A stretch of DNA of 64,000 nucleotides, taken from the NCBI RefSeq assembly GCF_006345805.1, contig NC_042998.1:129022001-129086000 (forward strand), given 5' to 3'. The stretch's first letter is position 1, and each line of letters opens with the position of its first letter. This document shows positions 2,420 through 54,127 of this stretch, piece by piece. Source of the stretch: Octopus sinensis (lineage: Eukaryota). The position numbers and the translations under genes are program-made. The notes beneath the pieces are model-generated. The model searched no databases. It was not told the origin of the DNA and saw nothing but the letters and a program-made list of their open reading frames with translations.

Positions 2420-2578
2420 TGGGTTACTTTCAGTTTCCGTTTACTAAATCCACTCACAAACTTTGATCGGCCCGAGGCTATAGTACAAGATAGTTGCTCG
2501 AAGTGCCACGCAGTAGGACTGAACCCCAAACTATGTGGTTGGGAAGCAAACATCTTACCACGCAACCACGCCTGCGCG
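2420..2578 (-). mobile_element. tRNA-derived SINE family B, head half
   Basis: ctttcagtttccgtttactaaatccactcaca...ggactgaaccc...cacgcctgcgc; same as the 35570-35731 segment, ends at a (TA)n tract. Confidence 0.85.
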
Positions 2579-3432
2579 TATACATATTCCTATATAACAA
2601 CGACTAGGGATATACGCGTATGTGGTTGTATGTTTACTTTTTAATATCAGTTATATAAATATACTTATGCCACTAGTATTTACATACGCACCTACATATA
2701 CATTATCTACGCCGTGAGAGAGAGAGAGAGAGAAAGAGAGAAATTCATGTACACACACACGCACACACGTTCACGCGCACGCACGCACATATGTGAGTAT
2801 ATGAGTGTGCATGTGTATGTAAATGTGTGTACATAAGTGTGCACGTATTTGCATGTCCTTATGTCGTGATTATATGTTTGTATGTTTGAAGATCGTTAAC
2901 GTTTCTTCATACATATCTACTTGGCGTTCCTTTTATAATCTCCTCTTAACTGCTTCTCTCCCATTACTAACATTTATTATTTCTTCCTTCTTACCTCCCT
3001 TTCTCTTCTCACTCTTGCTAATCCCATTTAATACATCCTTCACTAACATTCTGCATTTCTTTTTTTTTAATCTTACCGAGGATTCCCGAAATACTAGATC
3101 TCTCTTCTTCTTTACGACATAATATATTTGTATTATTTTTTGCTCGCGCAGAACATTATTAGTTTCCTAGGATTCTACTGTTTTAATATATAATTAAATT
3201 GAACTCCCTGTGAGCCGTATCCACGTCGCCATTCCTACTTTGGTGCCATTTTACTATACTTACGTTGATCAGTAAATTGTCTTTTCGAAATCATGAAATC
3301 TGATTTCTCAACCCTCATCCAGCCACTTAAATTAATTCTTAGATCTTCACATTTAACAGAAATTGCATATAAAAGGGCTGAATATGAATTATATTTGTAT
3401 ATGCAGACACAACTATACACATATACATATGC

Positions 3433-3535
<103 letters not shown>

Positions 3536-4119
3536 GATTGATCAATCTATGTGTATGAGTTTGAGTGCGTGTGTGTTTGTATGTTTTTCGTATCATGGTA
3601 TAGAAAAAAAATCAATATTTGCTTATAGAGGTAACGCAGATGATCTGTTCTTCCATTTCTCTCTTCCTGTCTACAGTAAAAAGTGTACAAATTACCAAAT
3701 ACCTACAGATATTATAAGAAGCATGTCATACACACCATCATGCATGCACACACACACACACACGCTGACACGCACTCAAACACACGTGTATATGTGTTGT
3801 TACTTTGGTTTCGTAACACATTTTCATGTTGCCACGTCCTTTACCAATTCTTGTAGAACACAGAAATTCTTACAGACATTCGGATGCCATCTGGACATAA
3901 TAATCTTAAATCCCCATGAGATCATATTCTCCTAGTTCTCAGTTCTATCTCCCCCATTATCTATATTCTGACTTACTGTGAAATTAGTAAACTTATTGAA
4001 AAAGATTTTAATATCGATAACTATCAATAGTGAAATCTTATTTTTCAAAATTACGCATAATAGTTATTCTATTATATTGTCTATTTAAATATAACAAAAT
4101 ATAGTATAGCGAATAATAA

Positions 4120-4320
4120 TTTTGGCACAAGGCCAGCAATTTCACAGGAGGGGATTAGTCGATTACATCGCCCCCAGTGTTCAACTGGTACTTATTTTAC
4201 CGACCCCGAAAGGATGAAAGGCAAAGTCTTCCTCGATGGCATTCGAACTCAAAACGTGGAGAGGGACCAAATGCCGCTAAGTATTTTGACCGGCAAGCTA
4301 ACGATTCTACCAGCTAGCCA
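4120..4320 (-). mobile_element. SINE family A
   Basis: ttttggcacaaggccagcaattt...cgaccccgaaaggatgaaaggcaaagtc. Confidence 0.85.
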
Positions 4321-4334
4321 TATTAGAAAATAAT

Positions 4335-4740
4335 AATAGTGGTAGCCGACAAGATGTACCACATGTGATATATAGTTGATATTGCATGCCCCTTTGACCC
4401 ACGAATAGTCAAGAAGGAAGGCGAAAAATAGATAAATACAACCCTCTTAAGTACGAAAGAGCCCGGCTATGGAAAATGAAGAAGGTGAATATAGTACCCA
4501 ATTATTGTTGGGTCTTTGGGAATAATATCAGAATGCATCAAGAGGAATATCAAGGAAATTGGAATAGAGTGATCAGAAGAACTGTTACAAAAGGTTTGCC
4601 TCCTTGGCACGGCCAAAATAACCAGGAAAGTATTAAATACTTCAAAAGAAAAGATAGCATGGTACCGTAGGCTGTAGGTAGCAAGCCCGCTATACATGCA
4701 AGACTCCAGGAGTTCCAGCAAAATATGTGATAAAAAGAAA
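4335..4740 (+). mobile_element. 3' fragment of R4/Dong-like non-LTR retrotransposon (restriction-like endonuclease), decayed
   Basis: Manual translation across frameshifts: IVDIACPFDPRIVKKEGEK..DKYNPLKYE.ARLWKMKKVNIVP.IVGSLG; ends at a (TAA)n tract. Confidence 0.75.
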
Positions 4741-4748
4741 TAATAATG

Positions 4749-4818
<70 letters not shown>

Positions 4819-4880
4819 TAATAATAATGATGATGATATCAATAATGACAACAACAACAACAACAATAATGATAATAATA
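4741..4880. repeat. (TAA)n/(CAA)n microsatellite
   Basis: Direct reading. Confidence 0.95.
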
Positions 4881-5158
4881 AAAGGGTGTTAGAAACATCT
4901 AGATAACATTCCAGGACAACCAAAAGATTGTGCTGACAAATACTGCCCACATCCTCAGAAAAACCCTATTCATTTAAATGTCTGTGTTGTATTACATGAA
5001 GATATTTCGCTACTGCCCCTGCAACTTCACCTCCCCAACTTTTCAGTCATACTGTAATATCTCATAGTCGTCGCTCGCCCTAGAACGCTGGGTGTGCCTC
5101 GGCAACTGATTGTAACAAATATGCAGCTTAAAAGTTAAATAACAATAATAAAAATAAC
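4881..5158 (+). mobile_element. Extreme 3' end of a second R4/Dong-like LINE
   Basis: QKIVLTNTAHILRKTLFI* resembles QKIALLGTAHILRRTLSIQ* at ~44660-44724; 3' UTR ends in aataacaataat. Confidence 0.65.
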
Positions 5159-10415: not shown

Positions 10416-11627
10416 ACGTCCCTATATATAAATGTATGTATGTATATATATATATGCATGTATGTATATACATATTTGCGTATATATGTATATATAGAAA
10501 TGCATGTATATATATATATATATATATACAGAGAGAGAGAGGGAAGGGATGTAGAAAGAGGCCAACAAACGTACATATGTGTATATTTACATACACAAAT
10601 TCATATCTACTCTCTATCTTTCTATCTATATATACATATAGATTTGTGTGTGTGTGTGTGTTCGATATATAAGTGTATGTATATAAAACAGACAGACAGA
10701 AGGAGATGAAAGAGAGGTATAAAGGAGAGAGATAGAAAATTTGAATAAACACGCGAGGCAACAGATAGGTAAAAATAGACGAATAAAGAAAAAAAGAAAG
10801 AGAAAACAAAAAGAAATAAAATAGCATCGAATGAAAAATGCAAAAAAAATGTAATCAATGTGCAACTGAAAAAATAATATAGATCAGGAAAGTAAAAGTG
10901 TGTTTGATTGATGCAGCAATGAGTAAAGCGAAACACACCGATGTCAATATTCGTCAGGAAGGAATATCGCCTATGTAGTTTTCACGTGATGCTTTAGTCG
11001 AGTAGCCATGTTGATTGTTAGCTTAGTGGTTTGCTGAAGGGCATCATAGTAGATCTCTTATGTTCTTGTGTTCAGACTGGATAGGCTGTATCGAATCGAA
11101 TCTTCATTATCTATCTATCTATCTATCTCCATCTATCTATCTACCTATCCATCTGTGTATATATATTTGAATACATATATATTTGAATATATATATATAT
11201 ATATATATATATTGAATACATACATATATATATATATCTCCTCTCTCTCTCTCTTCCGTTGCTTCTCTTTCTTTTCTTTTCTCTCTTCTCTGTCACGTGA
11301 CTGCTGGCCGAAATCTGCCTTTCAGCTTCTGACCAGCGTCGTGTTAACATCGTTGTTTTTCGTCCGCCGCTATAGGCATCGCCGATAAGGCTCCTTTCCT
11401 TGCGCCAGAGAAATAATTTGTTTGCTTGTTATCAGTCGTAAGACACTTGTTGTTGTTTTCACCGTTAATGCTTCTGTATTTCATGTTTCTGTGTTCCATT
11501 ATTTTTTTGTTTTTTTATATTCGTCCCTTTTGCTGTCCTGGTGTCCGTATGCATTCGATCCTTCTTCCAGGAAATCTACGCTCCCAGCTTAGTTTTTCTA
11601 ATGCTCGCTGCTTAGTTTTTCTTGGAG

Positions 11628-11720
11628 GGCTGGCCGTGATCTAGTAATCTCAAGATTAATCAGCCGAAATTACTACGATGATCCGGTTCTTGACTGAAGA
11701 CTGAGGGTTTCGAATGTCCT
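11628..11720 (+). ncRNA. Putative hammerhead ribozyme with non-canonical strand order
   Basis: TAGTAA-TC-TCAAGA...CAGCC-GAAA-TTACTA...TCTTGA-CTGAAGA; stems I and III covary with the homolog at 53261-53355. Confidence 0.65.
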
Positions 11721-11788
11721 GTCCGTGTTTATTGTATCGTCTTCTAAGAGTTATACGTTCTTGTCCATGTTGTATTTTTCTACATACC

Positions 11789-11849
<61 letters not shown>

Positions 11850-12000
11850 ATATATATATATATTTGAATACATACATATATATATACATATATATATTGG
11901 TAAAAACGGTAAGATAACAAAAGAAAGAAAGAGACCTCAATATTATGTAAATAGAGGAAATTTATCTATAAAATAAAATGTTACATTTACTCAATAGTCA

Positions 12001-52797: not shown

Positions 52798-53260
52798 ACG
52801 CACACGCACACACACACACACAATGAAACCATATGATTTGCAGCTGAATCTGTTCTTAAAGGTTGGCTTCAAAAGTTGCTTTCCTTCGCGTTCGTTACAC
52901 TACATTTATCATGTTAGTTTTGACTTTAGGAGTCCCATCTAGTGTGAGCCATTTATGTGTATTAATGCTCTTAATATAAATAAATATATTTAAAGGGAAT
53001 AACTATAATGTTTCCCTTTTTGAGGTTTTTCACGCTGACTACTTGATAAATTCTTTTAAAGATTTTAACCTCTTCTTAAATTATATATATATATAATACA
53101 TACATAGTACGTACATACATAAATATATACATACATACAAACACACACATATAAATATAAAAAATGGACAAAAACGCAATAGAAGGCAATAAAACATTTG
53201 GCCAGATATACGATACAAAGGTGGACAGGAGAAACAGCAGTTAGGACAGGCAAAAAAATA

Positions 53261-53355
53261 CGGGTCATTCGTCGCCTTCTTTCCTCAGTCAAGTACCAGA
53301 AGTCATAACTGTTTCGGGCAGTTACACTTGAGACAATTCGATCTGGTTGCTCCCA
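53261..53355 (-). ncRNA. Putative hammerhead with non-canonical strand order (homolog of 11628-11720)
   Basis: Minus strand: AATTG-TC-TCAAGTG...TGCCC-GAAA-CAGTT...TACTTGA-CTGAGGA. Confidence 0.65.
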
Positions 53356-54127
53356 ATATCTTATATACCACCGGTCATTGCTTGTGTTGATGTTCTTATA
53401 ATTTTAAGCGATATAAACAAGGATCAACAATTTTAAAACGAGAAGGGGTAAGTGAAATATAAACAAACAACAACCAGTGAATGTGTGAATATGTTTGTTG
53501 GCTTCTTTTCAGATCGAAAGTCTTGCAAAAACGAATTAAAATCGAAAAATACTTATATCTCTATGGCTAACCCTATTGAGATATCTCGCAATTCCTTTTG
53601 TGTCTCGGTTCCGATTCACCCATTACAGCGTTCTGAAATTAAGTTTTACGTTATATGTCTTCGATGCAGAGATCGATCTTTATATATTGAAACTGAAAAT
53701 CAGCCGCTTCGTCTTACCAATATAGAAAGCCTGAAACGATATTAAACCATTTTTTTTCAACTTCTAAGTAAAGACAAAGAATAAAGCGAAAAGAAAAAAG
53801 GAAATATAACGACATGAATCTGCTACGTTGTCAAAATCTACAATTATCTTAACAATATTTCCAACACTCTTCATTGGGAGTTAAAAGTTTTTATACTTAC
53901 AGATTTGTATAGCAATAATTTTAATAAGTTAAATTCATTCGCCCTGAATGAGCAAAATTAATTAATCATGCGAATGTGTGGGAAATTTACGCAGAAGGTT
54001 TAGTCTATAATATCAACCCTAGTACTTGATTGGTACTTTACTTTATGGAACTCTGTATGACCTTGGCGTGATTTTAACTGAGAATATAAAGGGCAGAAAC
54101 AAACTATCTTAAAACTTTGTCTGTAAT

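Follow-up and report, generated by a model that had tools for sequence, protein, structure and literature searches.

The 64,000-nucleotide window of Octopus sinensis DNA analyzed here (contig NC_042998.1, positions 129,022,001 to 129,086,000) contains the parts of a hammerhead ribozyme in a copy of a noncoding tandem retroelement, family F1. We propose, with a probability of roughly 0.7, that these parts form a functional hammerhead of the reversed-cycle class (SGC/CSG/GCS) that is opened at a fourth place, inside its catalytic strand. In the scheme of Eckert et al. (2023, PMC10085705), the hammerhead is divided into blocks S, G and C, and the non-circular orders SGC and CSG cleave. That paper takes block C, the strand I'-CUGANGA-II, as unbreakable, with insertions of at most 1-2 nucleotides (nt) known, and reports no SGC, CSG or GCS ribozyme from the genomes of known organisms except one GCS candidate. 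A preliminary description of the octopus sequence had named its strand order a-c-b and knew of no natural example. This order is in fact type SGC, already published with demonstrated cleavage (PMC10085705); what is new is that block C is interrupted between A9 and G10.1, a gap noticed but left unexplained in the preliminary description.

Each strand named in the preliminary description was found where it had been placed, and the S-G-C order indeed differs from that of types I, II and III (Table 1). From 5' to 3', the strands follow each other as IV, hairpin V, II, P, III, UH (cut), I, linker, II', GAAA, III', P', I', CUGANGA and IV'. As had been anticipated for standard models, an Rfam search of the whole window gave no match at the gathering score, and a search of 11230-11800 gave none up to E=10. 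The plain minimum free energy (MFE) of the 131-nt region alone was unremarkable (z -0.24), an outcome to be expected of a calculation that leaves out pseudoknots. Across the 2.72-Gb host genome, the core pattern CAGCCGAAA-N12-30-TTGACTGANGA had 6,973 exact matches (3,491 + 3,482), compared to none for its reversed control. N7 varied (A/T/G) and the remaining core letters were fixed; UH, GAAA and CUGANGA were thus kept over many copies, a point on which the initial proposal had been made to depend.

A sequence-independent, stem-checking scan for the S-G-C order was run on both strands of 1.72 Mb (the fetched loci and the window). It revealed further families in the host genome, including one inside the window itself, and gave a single match on shuffled sequence, or none under strict criteria. 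Thirty loci were fetched for each of the families F2, F3, F4 and F5, and the parsed copies numbered 115 for F1, 19 for F2, 31 for F3, 19 for F4 and 20 for F5. The stem II pairs of F1 to F5 were, in order, GGCUG/CAGCC, GGGCA/UGCCC, GAAGG/CCUUC, GAGCA/UGCUC and GACAC/GUGUC; H17 was C, C, U, A and A (G was excluded by the design of the scan), and N7 was A, G, U, U and U. All the catalytic bases were retained among these families with unrelated stems. Stems I, II and III stood in the hammerhead register (A15.1-U16.1, G10.1-C11.1) with covariation, and helix P together with a linker of 1-5 nt formed the peripheral contact of stems I and II in F1 to F5. Two single copies, at L291 (plus strand, about 2750-2850, family F7) and L328 (plus strand, about 2215-2325, family F6), showed the same layout with other stems.

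The stem II strand was located 19-25 nt 5' of U16.1 in every family from F1 to F5, and it was present upstream in L291 and L328 as well. At the fixed offset of each family, 138 of the 204 parsed copies had five Watson-Crick pairs out of five (F1 85/115, F2 9/19, F3 22/31, F4 12/19, F5 10/20), compared to 1/204 for a downstream strand within 25 nt of A9. This agrees with the initial choice of GGCTG as the partner of CAGCC. The median duplex energy per family was -6.2 to -9.3 kcal/mol upstream and -3.6 to +0.9 kcal/mol downstream. A contiguous block C, in which at most 1-2 nt would separate A9 from the stem II strand, was not observed, F3 and F4 having a weaker downstream stem. An exact pattern written for F1 with an intact block C (type SGC) had no match in the host genome. 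The commonest pair per family at II.1 to II.5 took 1, 2, 3, 4 and 3 pair types, and stems I and III and helix P likewise covaried among families. In 12 copies of F1 and F2, 97.9% of the cells paired, compared to 18-45% in slid controls, and eight of the 16 pairs had changed on both sides, among them three of the five stem II pairs. By this comparison of sequences, stems I, II, III and P are established, and five divergent families draw their stem II strand from upstream, with compensatory changes.

We then considered how the break would be closed. With the pseudoknot and core strands kept unpaired, MFE folding paired the strand after A9 with a far-upstream strand (helix IV), and the stretch up to G10.1 formed hairpin V. 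Both helices were present in 69/115 F1 copies, compared to 7/100 sequences with shuffled flanks, and in 18/31 F3 copies, compared to 1/100; L291 also yielded this junction. In 17 of the 18 F3 cases, A9, IV, V and G10.1 followed without separating nucleotides, the window copy having a 2-nt linker after A9. The majority sequences of the subfamilies retained IV and V through coupled changes (by eye). These data support helices IV and V in F1 and F3, and more weakly in older families, and they predict that the A9/G10.1 break is closed within one molecule in a four-way junction. The helices (11552-11627 and 11703-11716) reach beyond the 11628-11720 span first described. Two other readings of this region were dropped: the bases after A9 as the relic of a minimal Penelope hammerhead, since those bases pair upstream as helix IV, and a pairing of helix IV with 11619-25, which was replaced by hairpin V.

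The preliminary description had invoked a pseudoknotted fold or an obligate dimer or circle. Its pseudoknotted reversed order stands, but neither a dimer nor a circle would be needed to close the break, as IV and V could do so intramolecularly. A ribozyme with these strands and this split core that works only in trans, or as a domain-swapped dimer in which the S/G loop of one copy in a tandem transcript docks on the II/P/I'-CUGANGA base of another, is an alternative that we regard as unlikely. Stem III already has 5-10 bp in the monomer, so that the usual reason to dimerize is absent, even though tandem arrays are common and Penelope-element hammerheads were reported to act as dimers (PMC4209133). 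P and III would form a near-continuous rod in subfamily A, awkward to fold back; each of the two linkers nevertheless occurs singly in cis-cleaving monomeric CSG or SGC ribozymes, some with P directly joined to III (PMC10085705), and the layout is carried by two consensi of octopus/squid Naiads, a group of Penelope-like elements, that are flagged "no pLTR".

The 5' ends of genomic copies were then compared with the predicted cut, for which the stem register, its covariation and these ends agree on the position 3' of C11649 that had initially been suggested. For F1, we used 99 copies fetched from the first 100 core-pattern places listed, the core pattern being blind to boundaries beyond +12 from the cut. 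Twenty-seven boundaries fell at +1 to +12 and three at -12 to -1 (p = 8e-6); of the others, 14 lay at -60 to -13, some of them internal deletions, and 55 further upstream. In junction counts made by eye, TA junctions of F1 at +1 to +3 accounted for 28/36 distinct places among 100 of 1,577 matches listed. The density dropped downstream, with 50 places at +7 to +15 and 15 at +16 to +37 (65 places, among 100 of 1,193 matches listed). In F3, which differs from F1 in sequence and whose cut lies about 180 nt from the 3' end, 24 junctions were found at +1 to +14, two at -14 to -1 and 14 at +15 to +42 (among 100 of 347 matches listed). Such a pile-up of 5' truncations just 3' of the cut would be the expected footprint of a cleaved template.

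Alternatively, the motif could be a structured, non-catalytic end of a retroelement, with the step in 5' junctions arising from transcription start, a reverse transcriptase (RT) stop or (TA)n microhomology. Junctions do favor the AT-rich linker, yet the AT-rich bases just 5' of the cut receive few of them, and the step coincides with the predicted phosphate both in F1 and in F3, whose sequences differ. Moreover, on reaching that point, the RT would already have deprived the upstream strands of their pairing partners. For one Penelope element, insertion in vitro was unaffected by hammerhead mutations, and RNA-seq gave no reads with an end at the cut (PMC11167929), and our own proposal is drawn from sequence; against this stands the retention of all catalytic bases across families with unrelated stems. 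We give this explanation little credence.

Several observations weigh against a split, self-cleaving hammerhead. No pile-up was seen in F2, where a TA-junction pattern had one match, upstream of the cut, or in F5 (only 1/30 at +1 to +7), and the first TA-junction pattern for F3, which used a minority linker, gave none either (one match, upstream). The majority of F1 junctions are not at the cut itself but 6-11 nt 3' of it, and T/A microhomology to the target can play a part there. The double changes in the 12-copy set mostly reflect one split between F1 and F2. Support for IV and V was modest in F2 (7/19 compared to 10/95 in controls) and F4 (5/19 compared to 5/95) and was not above control in F5 (2/20 compared to 12/100). 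Both strands join stem III to helix P, and the 4-nt bulge in the subfamily of the window copy may strain the monomeric fold. Two of the Naiad cases described below are imperfect, with a stem I of 2 bp in Bfor and one mismatch in stem II of Esco. Finally, no autonomous partner of F1 was found in the parsed copies, by upstream extension or in the F5 loci: no open reading frame (ORF) with an N-terminal GIY-YIG domain and an RT occurred within 1.5-1.6 kb upstream of the parsed copies, an all-vs-all upstream extension was swamped by simple repeats, and the F5 loci had no ORF.

A stem II of 4 bp (G-U allowed) could also be formed downstream, after a 1-nt insertion in F3 (28/31) and F4 (12/19), both at +1, and after 5 nt in F1 (92/115, at +5), and in 15/20 F5 copies at +4. 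An ordinary type SGC, in which the sequence immediately 3' of CUGANGA would supply stem II and the upstream strand would act as a competing off-switch pairing, is still the least probable of the alternatives. One-nucleotide insertions at A9/G10.1 are known (PMC10085705, PMC4209133), but the offset varies by family and F2 has almost no such stem (2/19). The downstream stem is 3-10 kcal/mol less stable, its bases also pair with the far-upstream strand of helix IV, and coral and cubozoan Naiads lack a downstream partner (by eye). In addition, a single nucleotide separates the upstream strand from helix P, exactly as in SGC and CSG ribozymes.

The motif has the sequence hallmarks of a hammerhead and lacks the contiguity of the six described permutations, and its cleavage is predicted. 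In the fold that we favor, the A9-G12 core stack and helices II, IV and V would be the arms of an almost perfect four-way junction. II would stack on the core and IV would stack on V, so that the RNA ends would exit via helix IV, and a single molecule would cut 3' of C11649 by standard hammerhead chemistry. Tandem read-through transcripts would be cut into unit-length RNA, leaving a 3' product with a 5'-OH end. A Penelope-like RT/GIY-YIG protein would then prime in (TA)n DNA about 143 nt downstream of the cut and copy cut or uncut templates, giving short copies that end at the cut and longer or tandem ones. F1 would be a non-autonomous, retrozyme-like derivative of a Penelope-like element, with the ribozyme type of several Naiads.

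On balance, although with somewhat less confidence than in the functional hammerhead itself, we also favor a broader joint reading. According to it, the motif would be a seventh natural hammerhead topology, with its catalytic strand opened at A9/G10.1 on a four-way junction of II, V, IV and the core, its RNA ends would exit through a helix absent from known hammerheads, and two stacking conformers of the junction could act as an on/off switch. The same reading would make it an ancient Naiad ribozyme, present from ctenophores to cephalopods and interconverting with CSG in nematodes and SGC-like forms in arthropods, whose cleavage in the germ line would be recorded by thousands of genomic insertions.

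Naiads were described as elements that target (TA)n and lack canonical hammerheads, with an HHR_core or HHR_half_core to which no structure was assigned; in eight of them, the half core lies 35-50 nt from GAAA (Craig et al. 2021, PMC8557442). No Naiad ribozyme structure was found in the open literature searched, bioRxiv supplements and subscription-only papers being outside its scope. Of the 54 Naiad consensi in File S5 of PMC8557442, we inspected all but Cmel by eye over their final ~300-330 nt. The split layout was readable in eight of the 53 ends (Bfor, Amil, Aacu, Anas, Naiad-2_Movir, Obim, Ovul and Esco), whose hosts are one ctenophore, three corals, one box jellyfish and three cephalopods. 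Of these, Bfor, the corals and the two octopus families clearly had helices IV and V; in Esco the two helices were plausible, and in Movir-2 they fell outside the stretch inspected. The 3' ends of six nematode Naiads (Nbra1-3, Hcon, Hpol and Asuum) carried an uninterrupted hammerhead of type CSG that shares the P helix, this type being formerly known from two metagenomic sequences. Five arthropod families were SGC-like or unclear. The motif of the octopus Naiad consensus had 460 matches with up to 1 mismatch in the host genome. The window motif appears to be one of the ribozymes missed in animal Naiad retroelements.

Other motifs were seen in the same survey. Naiad-1_Movir, Mgal, Bpla, Mphi, Scon and Mmer carried, at the corresponding place near the 3' end, a twister-like motif, judged against the twister consensus. 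Another conserved GC-rich motif, possibly another ribozyme, lay just 3' of the ORF in bivalve and hemichordate Naiads (CGi, Sglo, Olur, Tgra, Pmar, Skow1-2 and Pfla1-2). The remaining 19/53 ends showed no motif in the ~300-330 nt inspected.

The window copy of F1 is flanked on both sides by (TA)n, as expected from a (TA)n insertion preference, and contains no ORF of at least 120 aa. F1 copies share a common 3' end, have variable 5' ends and are often tandem, with spacings of 766-879 nt and one ribozyme per noncoding unit, as in retrozymes. A TA-type repeat was found at the 3' end of 96/99 copies, a count that includes tandem-internal junctions. The window differed from 29 other fetched loci at 1/231 bases, and subfamily A is therefore very young. 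The long inactivity reported for cephalopod Naiads (PMC8557442) sits uneasily with this youth. Contigs from four sequencing runs, which cannot show RNA ends, had the same subfamily letters, and 39 pattern matches in viral contigs included none that passed the stem scan. An internal duplication of ~21 nt (11585-11617) makes hairpin V of the window copy longer than in other A copies. The second copy in the window, of family F2, is older and 5'-truncated, without the 5' strands of IV and V. Elsewhere, copies of different subfamilies were inserted tail to tail within one TA tract (L004, L049). Short internal deletions removed hairpin V or the upstream stem II strand in L073, L092, L103, L112, L160 and several F3 junction copies, which suggests template jumps across structure.

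Table 1. Positions of the ribozyme strands and of their host elements in the window
Feature	Positions	Strand	Basis
(TA)n array, 5' junction	11158-11237	.	
5'-truncated copy of the noncoding tandem retroelement, family F1, young subfamily A	11237-11792	+	Fixed 3' end, variable 5' end
Helix IV, 5' strands	11552-11558 and 11560-11564	+	Constrained MFE, subfamily comparison
Hairpin V (closing helix 11565-74/11618-27, abuts G10.1)	11565-11627	+	
Stem II, 5' strand, GGCTG (G10.1 = 11628), 5' of the cleavage site	11628-11632	+	Covariation across families
Helix P, 5' strand (in SGC/CSG ribozymes, the "interaction" helix between stems I and II)	11633-11641	+	Comparison, constrained MFE, analogy to SGC constructs
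Stem III, 5' strand, TAGTAA (11642-47), then TC (11648-49): U16.1 (11648), C17 (11649)	11642-11649	+	Stem pairing/covariation, 5'-junction pile-up
Predicted cut	between 11649 and 11650	+	Stem register, 5'-junction pile-up
Stem I strand, TCAAGA (11650-55), and 5-nt linker TTAAT connecting the distal ends of stems I and II	11650-11660	+	Sequence comparison
Block G: stem II 3' strand, CAGCC (11661-65); GAAA (11666-69, G12 = 11666); stem III 3' strand, TTACTA (11670-75)	11661-11675	+	Core pattern, comparison
Helix P, 3' strand, preceded by a 4-nt bulge (11676-79), together the 12-nt linker	11680-11687	+	Constrained MFE
Stem I partner strand, TCTTGA (11688-93), and CUGAAGA core, CTGAAGA (11694-700, A9 = 11700)	11688-11700	+	Core pattern, comparison
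2-nt linker, then helix IV 3' strands (11703-07 and 11710-16)	11701-11716	+	Constrained MFE, subfamily comparison
(TA)n array, 3' junction	11792-11897	.	
Second, older copy, family F2, same layout, GUC site, cut between 53332 and 53331	53150-53357	-	Ends approximate

The break of block C contradicts the stated assumption that restricts hammerheads to six permutations, and because block C was assumed to be unbroken, all descriptor searches missed the split class. In the open literature searched, including PMC4209133 and PMC3088659 and with subscription-only papers outside its scope, the insertions reported in the core were all short, and a split block C was not found. The pile-up of insertion ends bears on whether ribozyme-cut RNA templates Penelope-type retrotransposition, and the point of helix insertion at A9/G10.1 would be a new site for the engineering of switches.

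Compared to known systems, F1 resembles Naiads in its (TA)n targets, its variable 5' ends and a motif near the 3' end, but it is noncoding and no Naiad ORF was linked to it; F1 is thus at most a non-autonomous relative of Naiads. Other Penelope-like elements of the host genome have canonical type I hammerheads with the same core, similarly placed downstream of the ORF, but in the ordinary C-then-G order. One of these elements is a remnant (L121, minus strand, 2529-5035) with an RT, a C-terminal GIY-YIG domain and a canonical type I hammerhead with a palindromic stem III; copies of F1 and F3 lie in the TA tracts adjoining it. Another is a large family (L343-L372) whose open frames reach 919 aa and in which the ORF is followed by a conventional CUGACGA motif. 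This family and an RT/GIY-YIG element beside L062/L063 were both rejected as partners of F1, since each has its own conventional C-then-G arrangement.

With metazoan retrozymes lacking long terminal repeats (non-LTR retrozymes), which were proposed to derive from Penelope-like elements (Cervera and de la Pena 2020, PMC7229834; Li et al. 2026, bioRxiv 10.64898/2026.07.22.740005), F1 shares noncoding, low-GC tandem repeats with one hammerhead per unit. This likeness is one of genomic sequence, and the hammerhead of F1 is not of type I: non-LTR retrozymes have type I hammerheads in units of ~150-450 bp, whereas F1 has a split, reversed-cycle ribozyme in units of 766-879 nt. The closest structural counterparts are the SGC, CSG and GCS ribozymes (HRIMA-1, PMC10085705), with which the window motif shares the reversed cyclic order of blocks, a short linker between stems I and II, whose opposite ends are held together by a helix, and the full CUGANGA/GAAA/UH core. 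Unlike in these ribozymes, block C is broken, two extra helices would close the break, all three links between blocks are covalent, and the motif occurs in thousands of copies in an animal genome.
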